Numbered from the stretch's first letter, positions 3,757 through 36,146 are shown. The stretch is 57,413 nt of DNA from an uncultured Desulfurococcales archaeon (GCA_964448055.1 CAYUVB010000001.1:45436-102848), one strand, 5' to 3'. A program made the numbers and translations. The notes: generated from the letters alone by a model not told the origin.

Positions 3757-5103
3757 CTACTCCCCTACCAATCCCTCTACTGTTTTCAAGAATTCTTCAA
3801 ATGCTTCTAGGAATTCATTTGCGTCTTTTAATGTATGTGTTGATGCTAGTAGTAGGTGGCTAGTATCTTCTGTTAGGAATACTATTCCTTTTAGCAGCAT
3901 GTACTTGTGGAACACCTTATTTATCAATGGGTGTACCTTATTTTCATGAACTTCCCTTACATTCTTGGGCTTGTCTTTCATGAAATGTATCCCTATCATT
4001 GAGCCAGCACTGGTAATACTTACTGGTACTTTGGATCTCTGCCCTATGTCATCTAGTGCTGATGCCAGTTTACCACTAAGCCAATTTAAGTAATCATAGA
4101 ATCCCGGCTTTTCTAGTATTTCTAATGTAGCATATCCAGCAATCATTGATACAGGATTGCCTGCAAAAGTGCCGCCATGGAAGCTTCTCTTTTCTTTAGG
4201 CGTCTTAGTGTAATCTAATGTCTCCATAATTTCTCTTGTAGAAGCAAATGCACCTATAGGGAATCCTCCACCAATGATTTTACCGAAGACCACTACGTCT
4301 GCTCTAATGCCATAGTACTCTTGTGCGCCTCCTAAACCCAATCTAAAACCTGTTATTACTTCATCGAATATTAAGAGTGAACCATATTCATCACATAGCT
4401 CTCTTACTCTTTCAATGAATTCTTGTTCAGCCGGTATAACGCCTGCAGCACCTTGTACTGGTTCCATAATCACACCAGCTATGTCATTGCCGTGTTCACG
4501 GAATGTTTTCTCTAGCTCGTCTACATCGTTGAATTTAACAACGAGTGTATGTGCTACAGCTTCTTCGGGTAAGCCTGCAGATCCAAGCCATGTACCTGGC
4601 TTAACAGCTACATGTAGTTGATCATAACCTCCATGCCATCCTCCTTCGAATTTCACGATCTTTTTCCTTCCAGTATAGGCTCTTACAAGTCTTATGGCAT
4701 ACATGTTTGCCTCTGTTCCACTATTAGTAAAACGTATCATTTCTATGCTTGGTACATGTTTTATTATCTTCTCTGCAAGTTTTAGTGCATACTCGTGTTC
4801 AAATCCCCAGTGACTACCTTTGTCTAGTTGCTCCTTAACCTTAGACATTACTTGTTCATTAGCATGTCCTAGTATAAGTGCGCCATGACCCATCCAGTAA
4901 TCTGTGTATTCGTTGCCATCAACATCACGTACCTTTGAACCCTTGGCTTCAATAACATAGAATGGATAAGGCTCAAAGAATCGAATATGGTATGTAACGC
5001 CCATAGGGAGAAGGTTTCTAGCCTTACCGTATAGTTCTTGACTTTTTGGAGTCTTCTTCTTGTATTCAGACAAGAGCTTACCGTATAGCTCCTCAAGACC
5101 CAA
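3757..5103 (-). CDS. class III PLP-dependent aminotransferase / glutamate-1-semialdehyde aminomutase-like protein
   Basis: 448-aa ORF with a HemL-like layout (VRDVDGNEYTDYWMGHGALILGH, FDEVITGFR). The PLP-lysine motif is VVFGKIIGGGFPIGAF. Confidence 0.8.
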   Translation of the reverse strand: MGLEELYGKLLSEYKKKTPKSQELYGKARNLLPMGVTYHIRFFEPYPFYVIEAKGSKVRDVDGNEYTDYWMGHGALILGHANEQVMSKVKEQLDKGSHWGFEHEYALKLAEKIIKHVPSIEMIRFTNSGTEANMYAIRLVRAYTGRKKIVKFEGGWHGGYDQLHVAVKPGTWLGSAGLPEEAVAHTLVVKFNDVDELEKTFREHGNDIAGVIMEPVQGAAGVIPAEQEFIERVRELCDEYGSLLIFDEVITGFRLGLGGAQEYYGIRADVVVFGKIIGGGFPIGAFASTREIMETLDYTKTPKEKRSFHGGTFAGNPVSMIAGYATLEILEKPGFYDYLNWLSGKLASALDDIGQRSKVPVSITSAGSMIGIHFMKDKPKNVREVHENKVHPLINKVFHKYMLLKGIVFLTEDTSHLLLASTHTLKDANEFLEAFEEFLKTVEGLVGE

Positions 5104-5240
5104 GACTTAGACCTCGTGGAGTTTATTGGGATCAAGGTGTTCTGGGAGATAAGTAATGCCTAACCACTAATATATGCTAATGAGTCATTACCATAAGGTT
5201 TTGATAGGCTACATACAATAATATTATACAAGGTGTAAGT

Positions 5241-5822
5241 GTGACTGCAAGGTCAATAGATCCTCTTGAGAAGATAAGGAAATGGCTTCGAAGCGAACCC
5301 GCTGAATCATCATGGCATCCCGCAGATCAAGGATGGAAAACTATTATAGATGTAGATGAGAGAACAGGGTTAAGGGTATTAAAAGCTAGAAGTAATAAAC
5401 TACCTTTCGAGCTTTCAGCCTTCATTCTCCCAAGCGGTAAATGTATACGCTTAACTGTTTCAAGTGGTGTTGAAACTGAAGGTATAGATAAGAGTTTAAG
5501 AGTTCTAATATATCGTGAACTACTTATACTTAATTCTATAGTGGAATTAGTTAAATATGTTATTATTTCGCCTAAAGATACTCTTGCTGTAGCAGTAGAT
5601 CTTGAAGTAAGCGCATTAGATGAAAACATATTTAGAGATAGCTTGCTTGCACTGTTTGCAGGCTTAATAGTTATGATAGAAAGATTAGGGTTAACTGAGC
5701 TATTAACTCCCACAGCTCGAGGTGCTTTAGCTAAAATTCATGAAAGTCTATTACGTGAGTACAGTATACCGTCGCCATTAGACTTTATATCTAGAGTACA
5801 TGTACCTAAAGTAACAAGTTGA
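5241..5822 (+). CDS. hypothetical cytoplasmic protein
   Basis: 193-aa ORF with a GTG start, divergent from the aminotransferase gene. No motif recognised. The antisense ORF 5327-5713 is judged spurious. Confidence 0.4.
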   Translation: MTARSIDPLEKIRKWLRSEPAESSWHPADQGWKTIIDVDERTGLRVLKARSNKLPFELSAFILPSGKCIRLTVSSGVETEGIDKSLRVLIYRELLILNSIVELVKYVIISPKDTLAVAVDLEVSALDENIFRDSLLALFAGLIVMIERLGLTELLTPTARGALAKIHESLLREYSIPSPLDFISRVHVPKVTS

Positions 5823-12893: not shown

Positions 12894-13859
12894 ATGAAGA
12901 TTGTAGCTCTTGCACCAGGTAAGGTCATATTATTTGGTGAACATTTTGTTGTTAAAGGAAAGCCAGCTATAGCTGTAGCATTAGGGCTAAGACTGAAGGT
13001 TGAAGTACGAGAGTATACTGGTGGTATAGTAGTTATATCGAGAAATACTGGTGAGAGATTAGTAGTTGATCCAGGAACATTAAGCGCTAGTAGTAATAAC
13101 CTTAAACAGCTCATAGCTATACTAAGAAGGCTTAAAGACATGTGTGGCTCTCTTAAACCGGCTTATATTGAAATACATTCAGATATACCAATTGCTGCAG
13201 GATTAGGTTCAAGTGCTTCGTTAGCAGTAGCTTTCACAGCGGCGTTCTCAAGATACCTGGGACTACATCTCAACAAGTATGAAATATCCAATATAGCATA
13301 TGAAGCTGAGAAAATAGTACATGGCAAGCCTAGCGGTATAGATAATACTATAGCTTCTATTGGTGGAGCAATACTTTACCGTAAAGGCTCTATTCGAAGT
13401 ATAAGTATATCGAAATTAGATGAAGTAGCATTAATAATAGCTGATACTGGAATAGAAAGGTCAACACGTGAAGCTGTTCTTAAAGTTTTATCCCTATGTG
13501 AAAGACATCCAAAGGTTATGGAGAAAATATATGATGCCTCCGAGGAAATAGTCCATGAAGCTGAGCAAGCATTAAGGAACGGTGAATGGGAGCGTATAGG
13601 AGAACTAATGAATATAAACCATGGCTTATTATCAGCTATTGGTGTATCATTAATCGAATTGGAGAAACTAGTTTATGTTGCTCGTAAAGCAGGTGCTTTA
13701 GGTGCAAAGATTACTGGAGCAGGTATGGGCGGCTCAATCATAGCTTTAGCTTGGAAGAGAAAGGCTAACCAGGTGGTAGAAGCACTTAGAAGGGAGGCTA
13801 AATTAGTAATAAGTACGGGTATAGATAGAGAAGGAGTTATAGTAAGGGAAGAAAATTGA
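12894..13859 (+). CDS. mvk: mevalonate kinase (GHMP kinase)
   Basis: N-terminal APGKVILFGEHFVVKG and the GHMP ATP motif PIAAGLGSSASLAVA. 321 aa. Confidence 0.85.
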   Translation: MKIVALAPGKVILFGEHFVVKGKPAIAVALGLRLKVEVREYTGGIVVISRNTGERLVVDPGTLSASSNNLKQLIAILRRLKDMCGSLKPAYIEIHSDIPIAAGLGSSASLAVAFTAAFSRYLGLHLNKYEISNIAYEAEKIVHGKPSGIDNTIASIGGAILYRKGSIRSISISKLDEVALIIADTGIERSTREAVLKVLSLCERHPKVMEKIYDASEEIVHEAEQALRNGEWERIGELMNINHGLLSAIGVSLIELEKLVYVARKAGALGAKITGAGMGGSIIALAWKRKANQVVEALRREAKLVISTGIDREGVIVREEN

Positions 13860-14560
13860 TACTCGACGAAAGATATCTAGCAATAGACTTACTAAGAGCA
13901 TTAAAAAAGTACTTAACTTATAGCGAACTAGAAGAATATCTTCAAATACCTGCACCAGGATTATGGAGGTATGTTAATGCTAAAATAATCCCTACTCGTG
14001 AGAAAGCCCGTGAAATACTATCTAGGATCATAGAATACAAGCTCGTATCCAAGGTAATTAAAACTCGTTTAAGAATTGTTGAAGAAGGAATAGTGAATAC
14101 ATATAATGTAATATACGATCCAAGTATACTTAAACTACTAGGATACGAAGCTTACAGCATGTTCAAGGACTATAAGCCAACATTAATAATGAGTGCTGAA
14201 GTAGATGGTATACCGCTCGCTATTAGTGTAGCTGAATACTTTGATTCCAAGGTCCTTATAGTGAAGAAGCGTCGTGAGGCAGGATTTAAAGATTACATAG
14301 AATACGCTATGGTGTCTAGAGATATACCTGCTATAACTACACTGTATGCTCCTAAGGAACTCTTTAATCGTGGAGATAAGGTTCTAATAGTTGACGACCT
14401 ACTTCGTACAGGTAGAACATGTAATGCTCTCATAGAAATAGCTAGGGAAGCCAAGGTAGACATTGTAGGAGTTTTTGCAGCTATAGCAGTAGGCTACGAA
14501 TGGACTAAACATGTAAGGAATACAAGAGTACATGTAGTTTTTCAAGTTGAAGCTCTTTAA
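13856..14560 (+). CDS. winged-helix / phosphoribosyltransferase-domain protein (PurR/GfcR-like architecture)
   Basis: TTG start overlaps the mvk stop (TTGA). The N-terminal ~70 aa are HTH-like. The C-terminal type I PRTase PRPP loop is VLIVDDLLRTGRT. Confidence 0.65.
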   Translation: MILDERYLAIDLLRALKKYLTYSELEEYLQIPAPGLWRYVNAKIIPTREKAREILSRIIEYKLVSKVIKTRLRIVEEGIVNTYNVIYDPSILKLLGYEAYSMFKDYKPTLIMSAEVDGIPLAISVAEYFDSKVLIVKKRREAGFKDYIEYAMVSRDIPAITTLYAPKELFNRGDKVLIVDDLLRTGRTCNALIEIAREAKVDIVGVFAAIAVGYEWTKHVRNTRVHVVFQVEAL

Positions 14561-20246: not shown

Positions 20247-20642
20247 TTGACAACTAAACTATTCTGTGAGGTATATGTGAAATGTATACTTCCAGCATTC
20301 CGTGCACTTGTAGCTAAGATCATGGTTAAAGAATATGGTTTATCTCAACTTGATGCAGCTAAAATACTCGGTGTAACCCAGGCCTCAATAAACTACTACT
20401 TGTCTGGTAAGAGAGGTCAGAAAGTATTAGCAGAACTTGAACTTATAGATGAAGTACGTAGAATCGCTAATGAAATAGCTAGAAGGCTTATAGAAGAAAG
20501 GAGGCTAGACCCTACAGATTATTTTTGTGGACTATGTATGTTATTGAAGAATAATGAATCTCTGCTTACTAGTGTGCTAAAGGTTATTGGCGTATCAAGT
20601 GTTAGGGTAAGTCCTTCCAGGATTATTAGTGCTCAACACTGA
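20247..20642 (+). CDS. HTH-type transcriptional regulator (XRE/COG2522-like)
   Basis: 131 aa with the helix-turn-helix LSQLDAAKILGVTQASINYYLSGKRG. TTG start with an ATAAAAGG TATA-like box about 30 nt upstream. Confidence 0.6.
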   Translation: MTTKLFCEVYVKCILPAFRALVAKIMVKEYGLSQLDAAKILGVTQASINYYLSGKRGQKVLAELELIDEVRRIANEIARRLIEERRLDPTDYFCGLCMLLKNNESLLTSVLKVIGVSSVRVSPSRIISAQH

Positions 20643-20795: not shown

Positions 20796-21362
20796 ATGTC
20801 TAAACATAGATTACTCATAATACTATCAGTATTGGTACCAATGTTACTTGTAACTATTGCAACAGTAGTAATTGTTGCTGGGACGAATGAATATCGTATT
20901 CCTGTAATGATTGATGGTCATTACGTTGAAGATAAAAACTTAATACATATACGTGGACTAATAGACATGAATATATATTTACCGGGATATCGTAGCTCTA
21001 TATACAGTATACAAGGTGAAGCTAATACATCAATAACCACTCTTACGGGTACCGCACAAGGTAAAGCGCTCAACCCTAAAAGTGGTGCAACAATACTAAC
21101 ATTCAGTAGTAGTTTCGTGTATGTATCAGCAACAAGTTATTGGTCTATATCCATTGCAGGCCTCCTATACATTTTAGGGATATTTGCTGGTATAGCTGGG
21201 ACAGGAGCGTTAATCTACAAAGGTAAAGACACTGAAATATACTTAGCGTTAATACCATTGATGATAGCAATAATGAGCTTTGCTTTAGCATTACTGTTAG
21301 CTAAAATGACTGGCAGTATAATGCCCATAGGTGGTAGAGGAGGCGGAAGCAGCTTAACATAA
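20796..21362 (+). CDS. membrane protein (N-terminal anchor, extracytoplasmic domain, two C-terminal TMs)
   Basis: 188-aa ORF, first gene of a tightly spaced plus-strand run. Confidence 0.5.
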   Translation: MSKHRLLIILSVLVPMLLVTIATVVIVAGTNEYRIPVMIDGHYVEDKNLIHIRGLIDMNIYLPGYRSSIYSIQGEANTSITTLTGTAQGKALNPKSGATILTFSSSFVYVSATSYWSISIAGLLYILGIFAGIAGTGALIYKGKDTEIYLALIPLMIAIMSFALALLLAKMTGSIMPIGGRGGGSSLT

Positions 21363-21363
21363 T

Positions 21364-23001
21364 ATGCTTATTAGCTTAATAGCAGAAGTTATCTGGTGGG
21401 AGTATAAGGTAATGCTTAATGCCACTAGGAGAATAGCATTAGTACTGATAATAATACTATTGTTTTCTAATATTTTGTGTTCAACTGGTATTCAAAGACA
21501 TGGCGAAGATGTAGGTTCTATACCATTAATCATAACCATAGATGATTACAAGGAAACTATTAAATCATTTTACGGCATTATAAACAATACATCAATATCA
21601 AGTAGTCTTCTAAGATTGCTAGCACTAAGTACAAGTATTACGAATAATACCTCCTTAAAGCTAACTAGCATACTACTGAACATTACTTCTAAGTTAAGAA
21701 AAATGTTATTGGAAAATCCAAATCCATTAATAAGCCGTTATGATTATACTCGCCTTGCTCTGGTTTTAAGCGTTGTAGATTACTATAATGGTTCATTAAT
21801 AGTAGATCCATTATTGTTTATAAAACTACTTAAATCTTATGAAAAAGCTCGTCAGCACTACATTCTAGAAAGCATAAGGACTAGGGATCCAGAACTAGCG
21901 ATATTAATAGAGAACTACCTTAAGCTAGCTCAATCAAATAATACGACGAGTTCGAATAAGCTGCTCGCTATTATAAGAAGTAAAGTAAAAGAATACGTGG
22001 AAAAAGGGAACCTAGATATTATCCCACTTGTAGTAGAGGTGCTAAAACAAGGTATTAGTGATATATTTATCGTTGATAGGGTAGTGTTTGCCGAATACGT
22101 AAATAATACATCAATCCTTCTAGAGAAGCAAGGCTTTATCGATATAGCTAGGAGATTACGTAGGATAGCTTCTCAACTTTATGGAGGATTTGTTGTTAAA
22201 GCTTGGAGAGATCTTAAATTACTTCAAGAAGAAGTTCTAAAACTTAACATAACGCTTACACAGGACTTAGCCTTCAAGTTAGCATCAATATTAGCAGTTA
22301 CCAGTATTACATATGATAGAATATACATAAACTTAAAGAACAAACCCGGTATCATTCAAACCATAGCTAATATCCTCATGTTGAGAGACTATACTCTTCG
22401 TAGAAAAATATATGAAACAATAATATTAGGATCTAGCCTTAAGCATTTTCCCTCCAATAAAGAGCAAACTGTTGATATAACAAGCTTTATGATTTCCCAA
22501 GTGCTTATGGAATCCAGCTCTGGTAGTCTTGAACTCCTTAGTCTAAGACAGCCATTACCAGTGAATTATCGTATAGAAGAAAATATGGTGGTTAAGCCTA
22601 TAGAGAATACAAGTACAATTCTTATAATTATAGTATCAAGCATGGGTATGCTTGCTATATTAATTCATAGTATTTTGGAAACATCTAAGCCTATACGCAA
22701 GATAGGAGAAAAGATAAGCCAAGGATACAAACCCAGTATATCATTTGAAGGCGCTAAAGCAAGAATTGTTGAAGCATATATCAAGGCTCTCTTACTATTA
22801 GAAGCTAAAGGTCATGGAAGAAAACCTTGGGAAACACCAAGGGAGCATCTTAATAGAATAAAGTCTATACCCTGCTATGAAGGGTTTAAGCGAATTGTAG
22901 AATACTATGAGGAAACCGTTTTTTCAGACCATGACATGAGGCTAAATGTAATCGATGAAGTTTACCACTACCTCAAAATGGTTGAAGAAAGTTGCGGCTA
23001 A
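21364..23001 (+). CDS. bitopic membrane protein with large sequon-rich extracytoplasmic domain and cytoplasmic DUF4129-like tail
   Basis: 545 aa with an N-terminal TM, many NxS/T sequons and a second TM (ILIIIVSSMGMLAILIHSIL). The C-terminal segment EAYIKALLLLEAKGHGRKPWETPREHL...IVEYYEETVFSDHD fits the DUF4129 pattern. Only 1 nt separates it from the upstream gene. Confidence 0.6.
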   Translation: MLISLIAEVIWWEYKVMLNATRRIALVLIIILLFSNILCSTGIQRHGEDVGSIPLIITIDDYKETIKSFYGIINNTSISSSLLRLLALSTSITNNTSLKLTSILLNITSKLRKMLLENPNPLISRYDYTRLALVLSVVDYYNGSLIVDPLLFIKLLKSYEKARQHYILESIRTRDPELAILIENYLKLAQSNNTTSSNKLLAIIRSKVKEYVEKGNLDIIPLVVEVLKQGISDIFIVDRVVFAEYVNNTSILLEKQGFIDIARRLRRIASQLYGGFVVKAWRDLKLLQEEVLKLNITLTQDLAFKLASILAVTSITYDRIYINLKNKPGIIQTIANILMLRDYTLRRKIYETIILGSSLKHFPSNKEQTVDITSFMISQVLMESSSGSLELLSLRQPLPVNYRIEENMVVKPIENTSTILIIIVSSMGMLAILIHSILETSKPIRKIGEKISQGYKPSISFEGAKARIVEAYIKALLLLEAKGHGRKPWETPREHLNRIKSIPCYEGFKRIVEYYEETVFSDHDMRLNVIDEVYHYLKMVEESCG

Positions 23002-23948
23002 CACCCTACATTATAGGATTAATAGTAATAGGTCTTATTGCAGCTCTCCTATCACCTGGAACACTTGTTGAAATAGAATATGCATTACATTATGGAATTC
23101 CCTCAATGTATAATATTGAGTGGAACGGCACGTCAATGCTTGCATCAATATTAACTAGTAATGGTTTTAAGGTAGTTGAAGCATATACTGTAGTAGACCC
23201 CATAATATTAGCCGAGGTCCATAATCCAGAAAGGATAATATATGTTTACATAGCACCGCAGTATCCATTAACCTCTAGAGATGTTAATATAGTTGAGACG
23301 TTAATGAATAAATATGCTTTAAGTTTACTGGTCTGTGATGAAGCCAATACATCCAACATTCTACTATCAAAGTATGGACTATGGGTTTCTGGAAGAATAA
23401 TTTATACAAGCTATGGATCACCTTACCCATTAGCCTACTTCAAAATAGGTAATTATAGCGGCTTATTTGTGCTAAACTATGCTTCAAGTATAGGCTATGC
23501 GGGACATGTGCGAGTAATAGGTGAAACACTTGATGGAGATATAGTAGGAGTTATGTTAAGAAAAGGAGATGACATCGTAGCGGTGATTTCTGATAGTTCT
23601 CTATTCATAAACTTAATGTTATCTAAGTCGACTTCCTACATGAACTATAGTAAACTAGTGGAAGAATTATTTAAGTACTTAACTGGAGGTTCTAGTCCCA
23701 GGAAAACACTTGTTATAATAGACTTAACTCATTATAGTGGACCTAGTCCAAGAAAAATAGCTGAAATTACAGGTAAAGGTTACGCTATTCTTCATCCACT
23801 AGTTATAGTACAATTATTATCTACGTACACTTTGTATGTAGAAGAAGTGATGGTTAGAGAATTAGTAGAAAATTATCCAATTATACTAACATATATCTTC
23901 ATTACGCTCTTATCGCTTCTTGTAATCTACAATATACTTAGACCTTAA
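22992..23948 (+). CDS. DUF4350-like membrane-anchored protein
   Basis: 318 aa with a TTG start overlapping the upstream gene by 10 nt. It has N- and C-terminal TMs and a periplasmic-type alpha/beta domain (NGTSMLASILTSNGFKVVEAY). The DUF4350 call rests on architecture and neighbours. Confidence 0.5.
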   Translation: MRLTPYIIGLIVIGLIAALLSPGTLVEIEYALHYGIPSMYNIEWNGTSMLASILTSNGFKVVEAYTVVDPIILAEVHNPERIIYVYIAPQYPLTSRDVNIVETLMNKYALSLLVCDEANTSNILLSKYGLWVSGRIIYTSYGSPYPLAYFKIGNYSGLFVLNYASSIGYAGHVRVIGETLDGDIVGVMLRKGDDIVAVISDSSLFINLMLSKSTSYMNYSKLVEELFKYLTGGSSPRKTLVIIDLTHYSGPSPRKIAEITGKGYAILHPLVIVQLLSTYTLYVEEVMVRELVENYPIILTYIFITLLSLLVIYNILRP

Positions 23949-24678
23949 GCTTAGCTAGTGCCTCAAATACTATTCTCGAAGCTTTCTCAACTCTAGGTGC
24001 AAGCTCCTTAGCGCCAGCGAAACCACTTGGTTCAACTAAGCTATCACTTACTATGAGCATTGCTGCAGCTTTAAATCCGCGCATAAGGCCTAGTGCAAAT
24101 AATGTAGCACATTCCATTTCAACACAAATTACTCCCCTACTACCCCAGCGCTTAGCGAAATCTGGGTCTTCAGCATAGAAGGCATCGCTACTAAACACTG
24201 GTCCTATGTATATTTTCTCACCTTGTTTCTCAGCTTCCTCTACGAGTAGTTTAGTGAGTTCAAAATCTGGAACAGCAGCCATACTTCCATCCGGTACATA
24301 CATACCAAGAGTAGCACCGCCATGAGGATATGCCGCACCAGTTGCAACAATAAAATCACCTATCTTCAATCCCTTAACCATTGCACCACATGTACCAAGT
24401 CTTATCATAGCTTTTGCTCCAAGCATGAAGAGTTCTTCGAAAACTATTGCAGCTGATGGTGCACCTATGCCATGAGTTGCAACGGTTATTGGTACACCCT
24501 TATATTCTCCCGTATATACTAGGAATCCACGGTTCTCGTTAACTAACCGTGGATTATCTAAGAACTCTACTAATTGTTTTACTCTTGCAGGATCACCAGC
24601 AACAACTACACGTTCAGCTATATCTCCTTTTTTAGCCTTTATATGAACTGGTTCATGAAACACCATAACTAGAACCAC
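23938..24678 (-). CDS. purine/uridine nucleoside phosphorylase, PNP/UDP family 1 (DeoD/MTAP-I type)
   Basis: VVVAGDPARV, GVPITVATHGIGAPSAAIVFEEL, IRLGTCGA and CVEMECATLF are typical family motifs. The true start may be the ATG at 24666. Confidence 0.85.
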   Translation of the reverse strand: MVLVMVFHEPVHIKAKKGDIAERVVVAGDPARVKQLVEFLDNPRLVNENRGFLVYTGEYKGVPITVATHGIGAPSAAIVFEELFMLGAKAMIRLGTCGAMVKGLKIGDFIVATGAAYPHGGATLGMYVPDGSMAAVPDFELTKLLVEEAEKQGEKIYIGPVFSSDAFYAEDPDFAKRWGSRGVICVEMECATLFALGLMRGFKAAAMLIVSDSLVEPSGFAGAKELAPRVEKASRIVFEALAKLKV

Positions 24679-24814
24679 CTCCTCTACAATTTTATCTGTC
24701 CTTCATAAATTAATATATCCTAGTATCTAAGTCTATCCCGAGTAAAGTTTGTAGATATAGTTAATACATAATACTCCTGGTATGATTAACATATGCTAAT
24801 CTGGAGGAAGTAAT

Positions 24815-26089
24815 TTGAATAGAAGTAAGATAGCATACTTTATTCATAAATTTGTGGTAAAAGTATTTGGGCTCACTAATTATGTATTATCAATGAAGCT
24901 TACATTAACTTTAAGTTTAACCCTATTATTTATTCCACTAGCTATAGTCTTTGCTAATAGGGATGTCTACCCGTTTATAGCTGCTTTGCAAATACCTTTA
25001 CTTCTTCTTCCACTTATTATCAAGAATACAATAGATAATACTACTATTTCGGTTACAAGGATAGTGCATAGGGGTGTGGAGAGACATGGAGCAAAAGCTA
25101 GGATTATATTACGTAATAGCTCAAATAATATTGTAAAGATAAGTGTAGAGGAAAGAATTACGGACAAAGTAATTATTAAGCCCAGCAAGCTTGAAGCTCT
25201 TATTGGACCATATGAGGAATCCACCGTAGAATACAACATATATGCTCCGATAGGCAAACATATTCTTAAGCCATCAACCATAGTAGTATATGATCAGATA
25301 GGTCTCATGGGCAAAGAGATAGAGGCAGAAATACTAGGCGACAATGAGGTAAGAATTAAGCCCGAAATAGCTGAGGCAGAAATTCCTAGAGGATCACTAG
25401 TAGTATATCCTGTCATAGGTGAAGGTTTTAGGAGTAGATTACGTGGAGTAGGCTTTGATTTTCAAGGCCTTAGGGAATACACTTATGGTGATCCCGTTAA
25501 ACTAATTGACTGGAAAACTAGTGCTAAATTACAAAAACTTTACATCAAGGAATATGCTATAGAATCAGGTATTCTATTAATACTAGGTCTTATGGTAGAC
25601 GTGGAGGATTTTCAAGGTAAACCTTCAAACTACGAGTTGTTTGCCAGGAGTATTTCCACGATATCATATTACTTACTACTTCGTGGAGCAAGTATTGGTT
25701 TAGCAATAGTATCGCCAGGTAACCTAATAACAGTGCCACCAGGACGTGGACTAAAATACATTGATAGTATACTTAACGCCTTCTCAGAAGTACCCTGGAT
25801 TAAGGATTCAGTTGATATAGCAGGATTCTTTTCCGGGATAACTAAGATGACATTACATCATACTAGGCCGAGAACTCTATTAATATTTGGCGAAGGCTCT
25901 AGGAAATACACTCAAGTAATAGTAGAGAATGTAAGAAAAAGTAGATTGCTCGGACTAAGTGATATCCGTGTAGCAGTATTAAATAATGATAAAATAACAG
26001 GGATGCTTACTAGACTAGGATTTCATGCAGGATCTATAAGTTCTCCTGATGATCTATATGAGTTGCTAAAGTTAGCGGTGATTATGTGA
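24815..26089 (+). CDS. DUF58 domain protein (vWA-like, MoxR-associated family)
   Basis: DUF58 signature LREYTYGDPVKLIDWKTSAKLQKLYIKEY and two N-terminal TMs. The ATG at 24893 (MKLTLTL...) is a likelier start than the TTG at 24815. Confidence 0.7.
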   Translation: MNRSKIAYFIHKFVVKVFGLTNYVLSMKLTLTLSLTLLFIPLAIVFANRDVYPFIAALQIPLLLLPLIIKNTIDNTTISVTRIVHRGVERHGAKARIILRNSSNNIVKISVEERITDKVIIKPSKLEALIGPYEESTVEYNIYAPIGKHILKPSTIVVYDQIGLMGKEIEAEILGDNEVRIKPEIAEAEIPRGSLVVYPVIGEGFRSRLRGVGFDFQGLREYTYGDPVKLIDWKTSAKLQKLYIKEYAIESGILLILGLMVDVEDFQGKPSNYELFARSISTISYYLLLRGASIGLAIVSPGNLITVPPGRGLKYIDSILNAFSEVPWIKDSVDIAGFFSGITKMTLHHTRPRTLLIFGEGSRKYTQVIVENVRKSRLLGLSDIRVAVLNNDKITGMLTRLGFHAGSISSPDDLYELLKLAVIM

Positions 26090-27078
26090 GGTATGTTATC
26101 TTAAAGTTAAGTAGGATAGCGTATCCTTTAATAATGGCCATGGGCGTTTATATAGCTTTAGCTTCTTCTAGGCTTACTCCTTCACCATTACTATTTATTA
26201 TAACTACTACTATAAGTTTAGCACTGGTTCTTGAATCTATTCGTATAGCACTTTTAGATGAAATAGGTCTAGGTGATGTAGGTCTACTAATATTATCAGC
26301 TAACATATTAGGCTTCATAGGTCTACTTGATGAAGTACTAACACTTATGTATTCTTTAGCAATACTATTGGTGTTAATTGATGGATCTAAGGTTTTGTTT
26401 ACTAGAAATGTGTTTAATTTCTTAAAAAGCAATAAGCTGTTAATAATGTTTATGTTAATGTACTTAATTATGGTTTTTGTTATTATCCATTTAGATATTT
26501 TAGCAGTATTAGCTGGCATGCTTGGACTAGAGAGTGTTAGGAGTTTCATAACCTTACTTTTGGCATCTAAGTCTTCATATATGCTTTTGGGTGTACTTAT
26601 AGGGTTGGCATTGGTAGTAATAGCAAATACGGTAATAGTACGTAAGTCAATCAAGGAGTCATTGCATGAGCTAGAACTTAGCTTAGAAAACGAACTGTAT
26701 AGTACAAGTATTGGGCAAGTAATTGTAGTTGAGTTTATGTTGATATTAATAGCATTTATTATTTATCCATTAGTAATCTATTCATTGATGTTGGTGCGGT
26801 TACCTAGTGGCCTACCTTACATAATGGGTGTAATTATATCCTTTATTGTATGGGTTATCCTACGTAAAGCAGTTTATGGGTTAATATCATTAAGTATAGG
26901 TGGGGAAAGCAGAAAGTTAAAGGTGTTATGGGTTACTGTAGGTTGCATTGTATCAATCTATATTATTGTATCTGAGGTTCTCGGCTATGATCTAAGCATA
27001 TTTAATGAAGTATACAAGGGTATAACTAGGTTAGAAATTAAGTCTATAAAATTATTAATAGAATTACTATGGGGTTGA
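26086..27078 (+). CDS. polytopic membrane protein
   Basis: 330 aa with about 8 TMs. The GTG start overlaps the DUF58 stop by 4 nt. Confidence 0.5.
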   Translation: MRYVILKLSRIAYPLIMAMGVYIALASSRLTPSPLLFIITTTISLALVLESIRIALLDEIGLGDVGLLILSANILGFIGLLDEVLTLMYSLAILLVLIDGSKVLFTRNVFNFLKSNKLLIMFMLMYLIMVFVIIHLDILAVLAGMLGLESVRSFITLLLASKSSYMLLGVLIGLALVVIANTVIVRKSIKESLHELELSLENELYSTSIGQVIVVEFMLILIAFIIYPLVIYSLMLVRLPSGLPYIMGVIISFIVWVILRKAVYGLISLSIGGESRKLKVLWVTVGCIVSIYIIVSEVLGYDLSIFNEVYKGITRLEIKSIKLLIELLWG

Positions 27079-27082
27079 CGAT

Positions 27083-27292
27083 TTGGTTAATGGGTCGGCT
27101 AGGATTCCATTAGTACTAGGCATATTCTTGATACTTGTCTCTCTATACTTTTTCTCGATGGGAGTAACACTTGTGTCTAATGGAGATGTTGCTAGTGGTT
27201 TATTGGCTGCTTTAATAGGCTTTGCCTTACTTGCTACTAGTATTACATTAATAAAACTATGGGGTTTAATGAAGATTAAAGGTAAGGAGTAG
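27083..27292 (+). CDS. small two-TM membrane protein
   Basis: 69-aa hydrophobic ORF with a TTG start, directly after the polytopic protein. Confidence 0.3.
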   Translation: MVNGSARIPLVLGIFLILVSLYFFSMGVTLVSNGDVASGLLAALIGFALLATSITLIKLWGLMKIKGKE

Positions 27293-29437
27293 TTACCTGA
27301 TCTTTGCTCTGATCACTATGATTATAGCTGTAATTATGACTCCTAGTACCAGTCCTAGGAGTAGTCCTAGTATTAAGTTATTTAGTGTGGTTGTGGTTAC
27401 AGGTATTGTTATTGTTTTTTCTGCAGTATGTGTTTCAGTTACAGTTACTGTAGCAGTTTTCTCCTTAGTTTCAGTAGTTGTAATAGCTGTTGTCGTTACT
27501 GTTGTTGCTGTAGTAGTCTTTGTTATGTTTTTCTCAATAGTATGTGTTATGTTTACATAACTTGTTCTTGTTACTGTAACTGTTACAGTTTCTCTATGGA
27601 TAATAGTGACTGTTGGTAAGGCTGTTATTGTTATACCTACTTGAGGTTTAGGTATACTTGCCTCTACAAGCGCTTTTAGCACTTGCGCATGTAGTGAAGC
27701 TAGCATGTAGTAATATATTGTAGTAGCCCAGTCTTCTTCTATACCTTTATGCGCTTCAGCCAGCTCCATATAATTCAATGCTATTAGCGGTATTGCTCCT
27801 ACATCGAATGCATCTCTTATAGAGGCCTTGGTTTCCTTCTCAACTACTTGAATTATACCTCCTATACCTGTTTTAAATAATTCATGTATAGCTACAACAC
27901 TAGAGGCTACAGCATGTATTGATGCAGCTATGCTACCATAGGTGTCATTGTTTGAGAAGGCTTTCATAGCTAAATCAACATTCATTAGAGCCTCGTCATA
28001 GCTTGAAGGCTTACTGCCAATATCTGATACCAGTGTTTCAAGATAGCTAAAGCTACTTTTAGCCATAGCTAGTAGGCTTTCAGCTATATCTTTAACAGCT
28101 TGTGAGTTTATCATAGACGTGCTTACTCTTGACATTAATAACCATTGTTTAGCGCTATCGGCCCTGGCCTTTGCAAAAGCTAACATATATATTAGTTTAT
28201 CTAGATCACTCCAGCTGGTAACTTTCTTAAGCATATTTATTGACTCATTAAATATTAGTTCAGATAAGTAATAACGGTATCTTGCAGCCAGCAGTGCTTC
28301 AAACTCTGAGAATGTTTCAGCTTTACTAGCCATTACTATGTAGCGTGTAGCTATTATAGTGTTATTTACCTCATTCACAAACTCAGCTAACCTACTATCA
28401 TCGAGATACACTTTAGCATACTCAAGTGCAGTCAACCCCTCAATATAGCTTGTAAATGCATAGCTAGCAGCCTCATAGTACATTTTTGATAATAAGGAAG
28501 ATGATGCTTGTTCCGCATAATTCAAGGATTCATTTATATGTCTTTCAATTATATATCTCACAGGGTATGGTATCTTCTTAGCCAGTTCAAGTGCTTGTTT
28601 CCTAGCATCTTCGCTTCTAGTGAGATAGCTATGTGTCCAGCTAATGACTATGTTAACGGCTTCGCTGGGAAGTTGTGGTAGAGTTATACCACTTGGTAAG
28701 CTTATGTTCATTCCAGTAAAATAGTAAAATGCTTCACGAACGCTTGCAACCTCTACAACTGTAACATTTAATTGTTTTCCAAGCTCTACCACATCTACTG
28801 GTACATATTCTGTTCTAACAAGATATCCTCCGGGTATAGGTTCTCTTACAATCTTTCTAACGTATACTACTCTCTGCCCTATAGGTATGAGGAATACCTT
28901 TGTACCAACTTCTGCAGCAGCTTTAAGCTTAGCAGGAATACCTCCTACGGGTCCTATACTTCCATCGGGACATATCATGCCTGTCATCATTACGTCTGGT
29001 CTAAGGGTCTTATTTAGGAACAAACTTAGTAGTGCGATAGTCATTGCTCCTCCTGCACTAGGACCACCTATTATGAGACTACTGCTCTTCATCCTTATGA
29101 AATAGTCATAGCTATTGAAGCTCTTGCCTGCAATGGTAGCTGCTATTAGAGCGGCTATCCTAGCAGTGGCTTGGGTATCAAGTTCTGTCAATGGTTCTGC
29201 GCTGAAGTATACAATACCATTACCTGGATAAGCTATTGATACATAAAGATCCGCAACAACTCCTCCTTCCTCTTCGCCCCCTATAGTTGTAACAGCTGGA
29301 ACTTTAATGTGTGTACTCTTTATCCATATATAGGATGTACTTGTCTCTGTAACTGCTATGACAGTTAATAATGGTGATACCATAGAGATTAATAGAATAA
29401 TAGCAATAAGCGACTTATATGCCGAAGCCAATATCAT
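27293..29437 (-). CDS. surface-anchored Lon-like (S16) serine protease with helical domain, Thr-rich stalk and C-terminal TM anchor
   Basis: 714 aa with an N-terminal signal/anchor. The Lon proteolytic motif is LIIGGPSAGGAM (Ser127), with GGIPAKLKAAAEVG (Lys170) following. The Ser-Lys spacing of 43 residues equals that of E. coli Lon S679/K722. The C-terminal part is a T/V-rich stretch plus the TM LILGLLLGLVLGVIITAIIIVI. Confidence 0.75.
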   Translation of the reverse strand: MILASAYKSLIAIILLISMVSPLLTVIAVTETSTSYIWIKSTHIKVPAVTTIGGEEEGGVVADLYVSIAYPGNGIVYFSAEPLTELDTQATARIAALIAATIAGKSFNSYDYFIRMKSSSLIIGGPSAGGAMTIALLSLFLNKTLRPDVMMTGMICPDGSIGPVGGIPAKLKAAAEVGTKVFLIPIGQRVVYVRKIVREPIPGGYLVRTEYVPVDVVELGKQLNVTVVEVASVREAFYYFTGMNISLPSGITLPQLPSEAVNIVISWTHSYLTRSEDARKQALELAKKIPYPVRYIIERHINESLNYAEQASSSLLSKMYYEAASYAFTSYIEGLTALEYAKVYLDDSRLAEFVNEVNNTIIATRYIVMASKAETFSEFEALLAARYRYYLSELIFNESINMLKKVTSWSDLDKLIYMLAFAKARADSAKQWLLMSRVSTSMINSQAVKDIAESLLAMAKSSFSYLETLVSDIGSKPSSYDEALMNVDLAMKAFSNNDTYGSIAASIHAVASSVVAIHELFKTGIGGIIQVVEKETKASIRDAFDVGAIPLIALNYMELAEAHKGIEEDWATTIYYYMLASLHAQVLKALVEASIPKPQVGITITALPTVTIIHRETVTVTVTRTSYVNITHTIEKNITKTTTATTVTTTAITTTETKEKTATVTVTETHTAEKTITIPVTTTTLNNLILGLLLGLVLGVIITAIIIVIRAKIR
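27370..27600. repeat. low-complexity GTT/ACT-rich coding repeat (encodes the Thr/Val-rich stalk)
   Basis: Imperfect reiteration of GTTACTGTT/ACAGTTAC-type units. The opposite strand yields spurious V/C-rich ORFs. Confidence 0.7.
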
Positions 29438-31755: not shown

Positions 31756-32625
31756 GTGGTTTCAAGAGTATCAATGTGTCTATTAGTACTAGTGTTTATC
31801 CTACTATTTACATTAGCGTATTATATGCCTTATTATAGTGGTGGGTTTGGCAAAATAGCGTATGAGCATCCTGTGGTAGTTGAGAAACCTAAACCCTTGT
31901 TCACATCAGTGTCACGTAAAACAAATATATACATTCCATTAGTGAACAATACTAGTAGTATGGGTGTTAAGGAGAATGTGAGTGGGTTCTGGAAAAACCT
32001 ACGTGATGTATGGTGGATTAAGGCTTTAACACAAGTATTCTTATCAATTATGTCAATTATATCGTCCATTATAAAGTTCCTTATAGATTTAACGATAATT
32101 GATATACCTAGACCTAGCGTTCATGAAGTAAGTGGTGAAGTTAATACAACTGTATTGGTGAATCCTCGAAGACTATTGATGGTAGGTGTATTAGGCTTAA
32201 TATCAGCTGTTATTGTATTAGCTATTATAGCTAGGTCTAGGTTGAAGAAATACGATATGACAGGTTACTTCTTAAGTAAAAGGTTTGAAGAGTACTCTTC
32301 CGAGGAGCTTGTAGATAAAGCTCGGTATAATATTAGCTTACTAGATCTTAAAGAAAAGGACATTAGCAAAATAATACTACATGCTTTTAGCCGTGTATAT
32401 TCATGGGGTAAGGAGTTACTCGGGATAGGAGAATCTATTACACCTCGTGAACTTGCATACCTATATGACGTTAAAGGTCTTAGTGATAAAGTATGGGTTA
32501 TTTCATCTGCATTTGAGGAACTAAAATATGGAAAACGTATTCCCTCATGGGTCAATGTTAATGATATCCTTGGCGCTCTACGTGATGTCGAGGTGAAGAT
32601 TAGGGAATGGTCTTCGAAGAAATAG
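31756..32625 (+). CDS. bitopic membrane protein with cytoplasmic DUF4129-like tail
   Basis: 289 aa with two TMs. The C-terminal ILHAFSRVYSWGKELLGIGESITPRELAYLYD...AFEELKYGKR fits the DUF4129 pattern. GTG start. Confidence 0.5.
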   Translation: MVSRVSMCLLVLVFILLFTLAYYMPYYSGGFGKIAYEHPVVVEKPKPLFTSVSRKTNIYIPLVNNTSSMGVKENVSGFWKNLRDVWWIKALTQVFLSIMSIISSIIKFLIDLTIIDIPRPSVHEVSGEVNTTVLVNPRRLLMVGVLGLISAVIVLAIIARSRLKKYDMTGYFLSKRFEEYSSEELVDKARYNISLLDLKEKDISKIILHAFSRVYSWGKELLGIGESITPRELAYLYDVKGLSDKVWVISSAFEELKYGKRIPSWVNVNDILGALRDVEVKIREWSSKK

Positions 32626-33128
32626 TCCTCCTACTTTTACCTATAGGTATTGTTTCAACAGTGCTAGCCTACTATTACTATACTAAAATAGCCAGTTATT
32701 GTTGCTTATCTTTTGGTGTATTAGAAGATAGTAGAAGAGAAGAGGTGTTAAAACCTCCTCGTTGGAGTAATGTTTTGGCTTCGAGAATAGAATTCATTGA
32801 TGAGACTGTATTGGATATACTACGTAGTATGATAAGGAGAACAGAGTCACGTTCCACCACATTATTGGGGATACATGTTTTTCCACATGGTGTAGGTTCT
32901 CTTCAATTATTGAGATTATATATTGGATCGTTCATAAGGTTGTGGAGACGTGTAGGCTTTTTCAATTCGGTTACTTTCTACTTAAAGACTATTAAGGTAA
33001 GAATGCTCTATAGTAAAGTTTTAAGACTTCATAGGTCTAACAAGCTTCATGGGTATAGACTCATTGCTTCAAGGTTGTTTAATGAAATAATTGAGTTGAA
33101 CAAGATCATTGAGGCGTATAGTAGTTGA
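32607..33128 (+). CDS. N-terminally anchored basic protein, function unknown
   Basis: 173 aa. It overlaps the upstream gene by 19 nt and the moxR start by 4 nt. Confidence 0.4.
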   Translation: MVFEEIVLLLLPIGIVSTVLAYYYYTKIASYCCLSFGVLEDSRREEVLKPPRWSNVLASRIEFIDETVLDILRSMIRRTESRSTTLLGIHVFPHGVGSLQLLRLYIGSFIRLWRRVGFFNSVTFYLKTIKVRMLYSKVLRLHRSNKLHGYRLIASRLFNEIIELNKIIEAYSS

Positions 33129-34099
33129 ATCCACGTGATGTATACATAATTGCTGAGAAAGTGAGGAGACAGGTTTCAAGAGTTATTGTGGGTAAAGAGG
33201 ATGTTGTTGATCGACTATTAATAGCATTACTTGTCGGAGGACACGTATTGTTAGAAGGTGTTCCAGGTGTTGCTAAGACGTACCTAGCTAGATCCTTTGC
33301 AAAAACTCTAGGATTGAAGTTTAAAAGAATTCAGCTCACGCCAGATCTACTACCAAGCGATATAATTGGTGTTAAGGTATACAATTATAAGACAATGGAG
33401 TTTGAATTTAGGCCTGGACCAGTATTCACTAATATATTATTAGCTGATGAAATAAACCGTACACCTCCTAGAACTCAAGCAGCGTTACTCGAGGCAATGC
33501 AGGAGAAACAGGTAACTGTTGATGGTGAAACCTATAAATTACCTGAACCATTTGTTGTAATAGCTACTCAAAATCCTGTTGAAACAGAAGGTACTTACCC
33601 GTTACCTGAAGCACAACTTGATCGATTTTTGTTTAGAGTAATAGTAAATTACCCCTCAAGGAATGAAGAAGTTGAGATGCTTAGGATTAAGAGGGTTAAA
33701 GGTGAAGTAATAGACGTGGACCAGATAGCTGGTCCTAAAGAAGTGTTAGAGGCTTCAAAGACTGTTGCCGAGAAAGTTAAGGTCGATGATGCTATACTTG
33801 AATACATAGTTGATCTCGTAAGAGCTACACGTGAACATCCATCAGTACTTTTGGGTGGTAGCCCTAGAGCCGAGGTAATGCTTCTTTATGCTTCAAGAGC
33901 TTATGCAGCTATTAGTGAGGGTAGAGATTACGTGGTTCCTGATGATGTGAAAGCGGTTTTCTTTGATGTAATGAACCATAGGATTATACTAAGACCGGAA
34001 TATGTTATAGGCACGTATAGTCGTGAACCTTTATGGAGTTACCGTGCAATACATGGTATACTTAGCTCAGTAGTAGAGAAGGTTAGGGTCCCCAAGTAA
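33125..34099 (+). CDS. moxR: MoxR-family AAA+ ATPase
   Basis: Walker A LLEGVPGVAKT, Walker B ILLADEINR and VIATQNPVETEGTYPLPEAQLDRF. 324 aa is the typical MoxR length. Confidence 0.92.
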   Translation: MNPRDVYIIAEKVRRQVSRVIVGKEDVVDRLLIALLVGGHVLLEGVPGVAKTYLARSFAKTLGLKFKRIQLTPDLLPSDIIGVKVYNYKTMEFEFRPGPVFTNILLADEINRTPPRTQAALLEAMQEKQVTVDGETYKLPEPFVVIATQNPVETEGTYPLPEAQLDRFLFRVIVNYPSRNEEVEMLRIKRVKGEVIDVDQIAGPKEVLEASKTVAEKVKVDDAILEYIVDLVRATREHPSVLLGGSPRAEVMLLYASRAYAAISEGRDYVVPDDVKAVFFDVMNHRIILRPEYVIGTYSREPLWSYRAIHGILSSVVEKVRVPK

Positions 34100-35409
34100 T
34101 GGTTTTATTAACTTCTAAAGCACAAATACTAATTATTGTGTCACTCCTAACATTACCATTAGGGTTACTAACTCTTAGAATGGAAGTAATACTATTTTCA
34201 CTAATAATCCTTATATCTATCGCACTAGATGTAATTTACTTTACACATAGTATTAGAGAAGTTGAAGTTAATGCTTGGAGAGATAGGATCCCAGAAAGAG
34301 TTATAGTTGACTCGATAATACCTGTTAAAGTCTATGTGAAGATCAAGGGTTTCCGAGGAATAGTTAGTGTTCATGACCATGTACCTGATGTTTTCCAAAT
34401 TACTGAAGGCAGAACAAGCTTGTATACAAGAGTACATGAGAACCAAGTTATCAAGTTAGAATATGTATTCAAAGCCGTTGTCCGCGGAGATCATAGAATT
34501 GGGCCCCTAACGGTAATACTACATAGTCCTCTAGGCCTGGTAGGTAAACGTATAGACTTACCTAAGAACACTATCAATTACATTAAAGTAGTTCCACAAT
34601 TCTATGCGTATAGGTTTAAGACTAGAGAGACTATTGCTAGGTACATTATGCCTCCTGGTGGACATCCAGTTAGGATGCGTGGTCTAGGTGTAGATCTCGA
34701 ATACATACGTAACTATCTACCAGGTGATGATGTTAGGAAAATTGCCTGGAAGGTTTCAGCTAAGAACCCTAGAAGAGAACTTATGGTTAAGGAGACTAGT
34801 AGTGAGGTAAGATTAAGCTTATTTATAGTACTAGATGCCGGAATAGAATCAAGCTTAGGTTATCCTCGTAGGCTTATAGACTACTATGTTGAAGCTGCAG
34901 GGTCTTTGATTCTTGCTGCTCTTGATCATGGTGATCTCGTAGGGTTATATATCTCAGGTACGCCGAGTCTCCTAGTACCATTAACAAGGAGGAAAGAGTA
35001 CTTATACATGGCCCTCAAGTTCCTTGAAACACTTAACCCTAGCAATACTAGATCAATACTTCATCGAGTACCTAGTGTACTAGCATCAGCTTTACCAAGA
35101 AGGTCTATAGTCTTCTACTTTTCAAGCCTTGAGAACATTATCGATGTAAAAGGCATAGCTGAGAAGACTAGAGCCTTAGGGCATAAACCAGTCTTCATGA
35201 TACCCTATACACCATCCTTTATAAGAATAAGCGTAGATAAATTACCATTAAAATACTTCTATAATAAGGTGCTTATCGATGAAATTAACAGGTTAAAACA
35301 AGTAGTTAATGAACTGGTAGCTGCTGAAGCTGAAGTAGTAATACTTAAACCCGTAGATTTTGTCTCCAAGGTTCTAAAAATCTATTATTCACTAAGGGAG
35401 CTTGCATGA
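34099..35409 (+). CDS. DUF58 domain protein (vWA-like, MoxR partner)
   Basis: TAATG overlap with moxR. Two N-terminal TMs and the signature IRNYLPGDDVRKIAWKVSAKNPRRELMVKE. Confidence 0.8.
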   Translation: MVLLTSKAQILIIVSLLTLPLGLLTLRMEVILFSLIILISIALDVIYFTHSIREVEVNAWRDRIPERVIVDSIIPVKVYVKIKGFRGIVSVHDHVPDVFQITEGRTSLYTRVHENQVIKLEYVFKAVVRGDHRIGPLTVILHSPLGLVGKRIDLPKNTINYIKVVPQFYAYRFKTRETIARYIMPPGGHPVRMRGLGVDLEYIRNYLPGDDVRKIAWKVSAKNPRRELMVKETSSEVRLSLFIVLDAGIESSLGYPRRLIDYYVEAAGSLILAALDHGDLVGLYISGTPSLLVPLTRRKEYLYMALKFLETLNPSNTRSILHRVPSVLASALPRRSIVFYFSSLENIIDVKGIAEKTRALGHKPVFMIPYTPSFIRISVDKLPLKYFYNKVLIDEINRLKQVVNELVAAEAEVVILKPVDFVSKVLKIYYSLRELA

Positions 35410-36146
35410 AGGCTAGCATAATCTCAATCCTTAGAATAATTACCGTAAGCCCAGTGTTCATTTTATGGTTATACAGTATCTTGGAAGTCTCTAGTGAGAT
35501 ATATGGTTTATATCATGTTATAACCGGTATATTCATAATCGTACTAGCTTGGTATTTAAGGAAACATAACTACGTTGACTACCCAGTATTCTTTCTATTT
35601 GCGTTTTTATTCTTTGGTTTAATAGCTCAGCTAGGTGTAGGTTTCTGGATAGAATCTCTATTTCTTATACTGCCAGGTTTTCATGTCATCGTGGCTTTAG
35701 ATACAAAGAAATTTCATCACCTAATAGCATTATTAACTTTGACTTATATCTACACGATTCTACAAGCATATCTCGTAGATATAGGTCTATCATATAAGGC
35801 TGGCCTAGCAGCGATACCAGCATTCTTTTCTTCAATACGTGTAGTACTCTATGGTGGGATACCAGAGATTATGTTCTACGAGCCTGTGCCAGGGTTAATA
35901 ATAATATACGCCTTAGCTACAATATCATTAATACTATTAATGATTCATGAGGAGAACATTATAGAAGCAGGCCCCAAGGTAATATTGGACTCTATGAAGA
36001 TACTCATAATTTCTTCGTTGATAGCATTCTCAATTGTTGCAGTATCAGTTGTTGTTCAAGGATCATTAATAGTATTCTGGACAATTACTATACTATCAAT
36101 ATCAGTGTTAGCAATAATAGCTTATAGAAAATTAGCTAAAGCATGA
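35406..36146 (+). CDS. polytopic membrane protein
   Basis: 246 aa with about 7 TMs. ATGA overlap with the DUF58 gene. Confidence 0.55.
   Translation: MKASIISILRIITVSPVFILWLYSILEVSSEIYGLYHVITGIFIIVLAWYLRKHNYVDYPVFFLFAFLFFGLIAQLGVGFWIESLFLILPGFHVIVALDTKKFHHLIALLTLTYIYTILQAYLVDIGLSYKAGLAAIPAFFSSIRVVLYGGIPEIMFYEPVPGLIIIYALATISLILLMIHEENIIEAGPKVILDSMKILIISSLIAFSIVAVSVVVQGSLIVFWTITILSISVLAIIAYRKLAKA

Follow-up and report, generated by a model that had tools for sequence, protein, structure and literature searches.

A DUF4129/DUF4350/DUF58 membrane module without a linked MoxR ATPase gene in a family of Desulfurococcales archaea, and an orphan MoxR as its candidate partner

Gene clusters for DUF4129, DUF4350, MoxR and DUF58 proteins are common in archaea and bacteria, and to our knowledge nobody has established their role. 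In a 57,413-nucleotide (nt) stretch of DNA from an uncultured Desulfurococcales archaeon of a hot vent (GCA_964448055.1, CAYUVB010000001.1:45436-102848; G+C about 37%; hereafter the window), six plus-strand genes at 20796-27292, termed module A, encode a membrane protein (A1), a DUF4129-tailed protein (A2), a DUF4350 protein (A3), a DUF58 protein (A4), a polytopic membrane protein (A5) and a small protein with two transmembrane (TM) segments (A6). A nucleoside phosphorylase gene lies between A3 and A4 on the opposite strand. All seven open reading frames (ORFs) were found where a preliminary description, made from the sequence alone, had placed them, and no gene for an AAA_3 (MoxR) ATPase is among them. 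The question raised by this locus is whether these proteins now act without an ATPase, or whether a MoxR encoded elsewhere in the genome serves them.

The window belongs to a metagenome-assembled genome (MAG) of 1.7 Mb that is 95% complete. For comparison, every DUF58, MoxR and DUF4350 locus within reach was fetched from 40 genomes of the same order, and these loci were annotated with profiles built from the window proteins. Below, G000 is this genome, L-numbers denote fetched loci, and g1, g2 and g3 are genera of the family f1.

In relatives the usual order of the genes is DUF4129 - DUF4350 - MoxR - DUF58 - polytopic - 2TM, and some lineages have a rearranged form (MoxR - DUF4129 - 2TM - DUF4350 - DUF58). 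Outside the module A clade, a MoxR gene was present within 3.8 kb of all 28 DUF4350 genes in the 40 genomes, mostly between DUF4350 and DUF58, and a separate scan of public genomes found the MoxR-bearing arrangement in 20 of 20 further loci with a DUF4350 protein of the large class. By contrast, an AAA_3 gene was absent from 20796-27292 and from all nine orthologous module A loci. Module A forms a single clade in both the DUF58 and the DUF4350 tree (support 100/98-100/99), and this clade is confined to family f1. The preliminary reading of the locus as the accessory set of a MoxR system without its ATPase was thus correct. Since moxR is present in the homologous cluster of relatives outside the family, its absence here amounts to ordinary loss or rearrangement at the level of the family, and a fundamentally ATPase-free system is not what the locus represents. 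What lies behind it is the ordinary fission of an operon, in an uncultured lineage and in a variant of a known, uncharacterised system.

The cluster associated with arCOG01314 (DUF4350), with MoxR and von Willebrand factor A (vWA) proteins, has been called a 'predicted secretion or membrane remodelling complex', and the MoxR ATPase COG0714 is listed in the majority of arCOG01314 operons (Makarova, Galperin & Koonin 2015, PMC5898192). Module A resembles it in having a DUF4350 protein with an N-terminal signal or anchor and a C-terminal TM segment, clustered with an immunoglobulin (Ig)-like plus vWA (DUF58) protein and extra membrane proteins, and in the order-wide architecture DUF4129-DUF4350-(MoxR)-DUF58-polytopic-2TM. 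[quoted passage not shown]

Three of these features (the lack of an ATPase in cis, the lack of a MIDAS, and the foreign gene inserted in the middle of the cluster) would also be expected of a decaying remnant, whose ORFs remain open only through chance or the recency of the loss. However, the module A genes are intact in nine genomes from three genera, although overall DUF58 identity across these genera is 27-36%, and the sequons and motifs are conserved. Module A is under purifying selection. The ratio of nonsynonymous to synonymous substitution rates (dN/dS) against a strain of 98% identity was 0.11-0.27 over A1 to A5 (0.17 for A1), and against a relative of 87% identity it was 0.15 for A4 and 0.24 for A5, giving ranges of 0.15-0.21 and 0.24-0.27 for these two genes. 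The values lie in the range of neighbouring genes and of module B, a second cluster in the window that is described below. The conservation data effectively refute decay, which is hardly credible as an explanation.

If the module is kept, its ATPase may be sought elsewhere in the genome, which encodes one DUF4350 protein, three DUF58 proteins (in module A, in module B and on contig C22), three AAA_3 MoxRs and one bpMoxR. The AAA_3 gene nearest to module A, at 33125-34099, belongs to module B (31756-36146, plus strand), which encodes a DUF4129-like tail protein, a 173-amino acid (aa) anchored protein, this MoxR, a DUF58 protein (34099-35409) and a polytopic protein. The preliminary description had taken it for the single MoxR, which is true only within the window. 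The MoxR gene on contig C22 (G000:C22:6141-7070, minus strand) is divergent from a DUF58-like gene of its own (4306-5604, plus strand); the 432-aa product of the latter is not recognised by Pfam, and the pair is conserved in g1 and g2 (L059, L070). The third MoxR, at G000:C26:16673-17620, is an orphan: it lies between BtpA-like and DtdA-like genes with no accessory gene nearby, and alone among the MoxRs of the genome it has no dedicated DUF58. Its sequence retains the Walker A, Walker B, sensor and Arg-finger motifs.

Two further observations concern MoxR genes. The bpMoxR/RavA-like AAA_5 ATPase (G000:C26:9395-10540, minus strand; Pfam bpMoxR 222 bits) is encoded 6 kb from the orphan MoxR. In genome G005, two MoxR-DUF58 ORFs read as single proteins, of 689 aa (L071:137-2206, minus strand) and 648 aa (L067:4610-6556, minus strand), and may be real fusions or assembly frameshifts.

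The neighbours of the orphan MoxR link it to the complete operons of other lineages. The layout BtpA-MoxR-Dtd was found in seven of the eight family genomes, and in the eighth MoxR lies beside BtpA and the contig ends before Dtd. When all orphan MoxRs were forced into one clade, the likelihood was slightly above that of the free tree. In five Desulfurococcaceae-type genomes (G026, G080, G116, L150 and L163) a complete large-class operon is divergent from the same BtpA gene; Dtd closes its far end in G026, G080 and L150, and the orientations in L150 are identical to those at the orphan MoxR locus. In the rest of the order Dtd and BtpA do not adjoin each other. The MoxR of the BtpA-linked operons found its best match within G000 in the orphan (E 7e-113, versus 2e-102 for the module B MoxR), while their DUF58 and DUF4350 proteins matched those of module A best. 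Synteny, best matches and gene counts all suggest that the orphan MoxR and the accessory set of module A complement each other as the two halves of a single type of operon. The orphan is the most likely partner because it shares its BtpA neighbour, and in three genomes its Dtd neighbour, with complete operons and because it has no DUF58 of its own. We give an even chance to the reading that the operon has been split and that the orphan MoxR is the likely partner of module A in trans.

Several points weigh against this reading. The trees place module A and the orphan MoxRs in polytomies, and approximately unbiased (AU) tests accepted every grouping that was tried (p 0.32-0.56). No relics of accessory genes (DUF4350, DUF4129, DUF58 or 2TM) were detected at the orphan MoxR loci by tblastn at E values up to 10, and the history therefore needs several deletions. 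That the orphan MoxR occurs together with module A in each of the eight family genomes counts as one evolutionary event, not eight. In g3 there is in addition a complete operon of the large class (L060), together with a small one (L063), and these could supply or confuse partners. Finally, the loss of the MIDAS aspartate and of the DUF4350 tail fits equally well with a complex that no longer uses an ATPase.

The preliminary description had pointed to the MoxR at 33125-34099 as the ATPase to be tested with A4. Module A would then borrow this protein, encoded 6 kb downstream, and one ATPase would be shared by two paralogous accessory sets in an envelope super-locus. In this genome, in a MAG of the same genus and in the 98%-identical strain the two modules share a strand and lie close together, and both are restricted to the same family. 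However, module B adjoins module A, between o104 and cutA, only in g1. In G002 the flanking genes DUF92, o104 and cutA follow one another without interruption, module B being on a different contig, and in G003 modules A and B are on separate contigs. The module B MoxR gene also overlaps the module's own DUF58 gene, its product has a long private branch (0.6-0.7), the MoxRs of canonical DUF4350 operons are closer to the orphan, and the genome is not short of MoxRs. The orphan on the other contig is the better candidate, and sharing of the module B ATPase appears distinctly improbable.

A4 (24815-26089, plus strand) encodes a DUF58 protein of 424 aa that scores 38.6 bits against Pfam DUF58 (PF01882; gathering cut-off 23.4). 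Its AlphaFold2 (AF2) model (mean predicted local distance difference test, pLDDT, 77.8) consists of a TM hairpin, an Ig-like beta-sandwich and a vWA domain, and Foldseek matched it to the vWA domains of TFIIH p44, Rpn10, NorD and BatB (E 1e-6 to 1e-4). As had been proposed from the sequence, MVDVEDF occupies the position of the MIDAS motif; alignment and model place it exactly where, in MoxR-linked DUF58 proteins, D-x-S/T-x-S/T follows vWA strand beta-1. The MIDAS aspartate is replaced in five of five module A orthologues aligned, which read M-V-D-V-E in the window and F-I-D-D-K, L-L-T-K-A, L-F-S-N-E and I-V-S-S-K elsewhere. It is kept in most MoxR-linked DUF58 proteins, those of the short type having D-x-S-x-S.

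An alternative to the split operon is accordingly that module A is now independent of an ATPase, having taken on a structural or scaffolding role in the envelope after the loss of moxR, without AAA+ remodelling. The loss of the MIDAS aspartate in all five aligned orthologues favours this, as do the long stem branches of module A in both trees and a DUF4350 protein without the conserved cytoplasmic tail of about 130 aa that characterises the large class. Each of the two losses also has a counterpart in systems that retain the ATPase: several MoxR-linked DUF58 proteins lack the MIDAS aspartate (for example G034 L051 and G013 L088/L089), and DUF4350 proteins of the small class have no tail, yet MoxR is present. 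Moreover, A4 keeps the DUF58 signature L-R-E-Y-x-Y-G-D-P-x-K-L-x-D-W-K just before the vWA domain. In the alignment of module A and B DUF58 proteins, 12 of 21 invariant columns fall within residues 204-246, which contain this signature, and among these R220, Y222, G225, D226, W233, K234 and A237 are invariant. With overall identity at 27-36%, the signature has thus stayed invariant; it is the best-conserved part of a family whose genes nearly always adjoin that of MoxR. A motif-intact orphan MoxR has also been kept in every family genome, and both points argue against independence.

Two characterised systems bear on this choice. In NorQ/NorD of Paracoccus denitrificans, mutations in the MIDAS abolish activation of the target and not binding of the MoxR ATPase (Kahle et al. 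2023, PMC9976466). In principle, then, the vWA adaptor docks on the MoxR ring and the MIDAS binds the target rather than the ATPase. Because MIDAS mutants of NorD still bind the ATPase, MIDAS loss in module A is no argument against MoxR docking. The A4 vWA model matches NorD by fold (NorQD cryo-EM entries 9qhd/9qhe). Unlike A4, NorD is soluble, has an intact MIDAS, is encoded beside NorQ and has a known client, cNOR, whereas A4 is membrane-anchored, MIDAS-less and has its ATPase gene unlinked.

The second system is the PA2875-PA2874-tgpA cluster of Pseudomonas aeruginosa, in which we take PA2875 to be the MoxR gene, the unit presumably combining a MoxR-type gene, a DUF58 gene and a gene for a DUF4129-tailed membrane protein. 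Disruption of PA2875 is tolerated and tgpA is essential (Milani et al. 2012, PMC3507681), which is a possible, though partial, precedent for accessory proteins that work without the ATPase. The cluster differs from module A in that A2 lacks a transglutaminase domain, and in that the bacterial unit has no DUF4350, polytopic or 2TM genes and still has its ATPase in cis. On balance, ATPase independence of module A is considered unlikely.

If the split-operon reading is correct, module A would be the membrane half of the canonical DUF4129 - DUF4350 - MoxR - DUF58 - polytopic - 2TM operon, its ATPase gene having become unlinked in one family. A trans-envelope complex would still be built, with glycosylated ectodomains contributed by A2 and A3, cytoplasmic parts formed by the DUF4129 tail and the Ig-vWA part of the DUF58 protein, and a membrane core of A5 and A6. 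A MoxR hexamer supplied in trans, most likely the orphan MoxR of contig C26, would still remodel this complex. The history probably consisted of a duplication and subsequent reciprocal loss, or of some rearrangement equivalent to this. A more far-reaching proposition is that a machine was split in this way into an orphan ATPase and a MIDAS-less accessory complex that cooperate in trans, or else that the accessory complex performs a separate function for which the ATPase was never required; this is put forward tentatively, as something rather less than an even prospect.

The individual proteins of the first half of the module are as follows. A1 (20796-21362, plus strand) encodes a membrane protein of 188 aa with about three TM segments and no match in Pfam or NCBIfam. 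It was found only in g1 and g2 (orthologues in L040, L041 and L113-L115), directly 5' of the DUF4129 gene. A small HTH_3 protein gene (20247-20642, plus strand) is conserved upstream of A1 in the same two genera, and its product is a possible regulator of module A.

A2 (21364-23001, plus strand) encodes a bitopic protein of 545 aa, or 530 aa from the likely start at 21409, which is the one called in the 98%-identical strain (L144). An N-terminal anchor is followed by an alpha-helical, sequon-rich ectodomain of about 380 aa, a TM segment at 419-437 and a cytoplasmic tail with the DUF4129 domain (PF13559) at the C-terminus, residues 471-526 (27.1 bits; cut-off 24.8). The protein has 13 N-x-S/T sequons, compared with 3.8 +/- 1.7 in shuffled sequences, which bears out its earlier description as sequon-rich; all lie between the two TM segments, in the predicted ectodomain. 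DUF4129 was the only Pfam match, and a transglutaminase core domain is absent. The fold of the ectodomain was not recognised: the AF2 model had a pLDDT of 66 and matched no PDB entry below E 0.26. A weak HEPN-like signal was seen in the DUF4129 tail, in a relative with Pfam HEPN (E 0.0014; C-terminus of L043:5357-6859) and for the A2 model with Foldseek (7bxo_D, probability 0.57 over 87 columns).

A3 (22992-23948, plus strand) encodes a 318-aa ectodomain protein of the DUF4350 (arCOG01314) type with TM segments at 7-25 and 297-315, and stops one residue past the last of these. While the DUF4129 and DUF58 assignments of the preliminary description were confirmed above the Pfam cut-offs, A3 fell below that for DUF4350 (PF14258; 24.1 versus 30.4 bits). 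Its homology to the DUF4350 proteins of relatives is nevertheless secure (phmmer E 1e-29 to 2e-32), and one of these proteins, at 32.4 bits, exceeds the cut-off. The sequons WNGTS and NTSN are conserved. A3 lacks the cytoplasmic tail of about 120-160 aa carried by canonical large-class proteins, whose conserved C-terminal domain of about 130 aa has the motifs GKRRFxPIVxxWxRT and LGYTLTxKEGxKGxEY. This domain was seen in L043:6847-8391, L045:7000-8595, L060:4278-5729 and others, and is absent from module A and from the small class. The Pfam DUF4350 matches obtained cover only the N-terminal part of the large-class proteins.

Downstream of A4, A5 (26086-27078, plus strand) encodes a polytopic protein of 330 aa with about 8-10 TM segments by hydropathy. 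A5 is the positional equivalent of the polytopic gene 3' of DUF58 in canonical modules and, from its match to the canonical polytopic set (hhalign probability 80%, E 1.4e-5), probably its homologue. A6 (27083-27292, plus strand) encodes the 69-aa, 2-TM protein, which is conserved throughout the order as the terminal gene of canonical modules (profile matches in 21 loci).

Convergent with A6 is a gene (27293-29437, minus strand) for a membrane-anchored, AAA-less protein resembling the Lon protease (Pfam Lon_C, S16). Wherever a module A locus extends that far (for example L042:11892-13871), such a gene directly follows the 2TM gene, and in G034, which belongs to another family, one is located 2.4 kb downstream of a DUF4350 operon that includes MoxR (L051:13239-15185). 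From this neighbourhood the protein may be functionally linked to the module.

The phosphorylase gene (23938-24678, minus strand; 246 aa, with a likely ATG start at 24666) encodes a DeoD- or uridine-phosphorylase-like protein. A PNP_UDP_1 score of 163 bits in Pfam makes its predicted place in the PNP/UDP family clear at the family level, while both NCBIfam scores were below the equivalog cut-offs (174.9 versus 230 for DeoD, 155.8 versus 280 for uridine phosphorylase). The gene overlaps the 3' end of A3 convergently by 11 nt (23938-23948), as the preliminary description had read, and the length of the overlap is identical in all seven loci that carry the phosphorylase.

The phosphorylase gene lies exactly in the usual moxR slot, and only in g1 and g2, whereas two of the nine module A genomes are without it. 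In g3 the DUF4350 and DUF58 genes overlap by 4 nt, and the phosphorylase orthologue (59-60% identity) is on another contig, in a context that is fully shuffled relative to this genome and hence uninformative on the ancestral position. The suggested lineage-specific insertion was thereby borne out, with the wedge present in two genera and absent from the third. Since g3 branches outside g1 and g2 in all three trees, a single insertion in the g1+g2 ancestor is most parsimonious, and on this synteny the phosphorylase gene evidently entered the former moxR slot later, in that ancestor, splitting the cluster into A1-A3 and A4-A6.

Noncontiguous operons, in which an opposite-strand gene lies inside the operon, have reportedly been described by Saenz-Lahoya and colleagues in 2019. 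Module A resembles these in having an opposite-strand gene wedged into a functional unit, with a convergent 11-nt overlap conserved in seven loci. It differs in having a spacer and a ribosome-binding site of its own before A4. This spacer, between the divergent phosphorylase and DUF58 genes (24679-24814, 136 nt, AT-rich), contains GGAGG 7 nt before the TTG start of the DUF58 gene. With an AT-rich spacer and a ribosome-binding site in front of A4, A4 to A6 may simply have their own promoter, and the spacer is the presumed site of a new one. No conserved promoter was recoverable from the spacer, which is not alignable between genera.

Two side observations concern the phosphorylase gene. Its coding region from the likely start (23938-24666) has a dS of 0.172 against the 98%-identical strain L144, compared with 0.00-0.08 in neighbouring genes, and may represent a short recombination tract or a separate gene history. 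In L136 (G010:C6:53900-73899), from another family, the phosphorylase orthologue, a homologue of the window ORF at 13856-14560, BtpA and a Lon_C-like gene lie within 10 kb, an arrangement which hints that the now-separate window and C26 neighbourhoods were once close.

Other searches added little. NCBIfam named none of the module proteins apart from the phosphorylase, and also named the neighbouring Lon protein; a word-indexed protein search returned only two close A4 homologues, and a single-protein scan of the genome contigs gave one chance bacterial match and nothing else. No tRNA genes were found in the window. A role in anti-phage defence was dropped, as none of the eight module A and B proteins matched a PADLOC defence-protein model at E <= 0.001.

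For annotation, the present case indicates that, where a cluster appears 'MoxR-less', the whole genome should be searched for orphan MoxRs. Interaction tests can also draw on concrete protein pairs from this lineage, in which A4 is combined either with the orphan MoxR or with that of module B. That selection maintains the membrane half although the ATPase gene is no longer linked to it has a bearing on the system's mode of action, and a MIDAS-less vWA adaptor together with a tail-less DUF4350 protein suggest which parts may rely on the motor and which contacts are dispensable. If the module has indeed been split from its ATPase, or has a function of its own, this family would provide a natural experiment in which the motor is parted from the membrane part of a widespread system.

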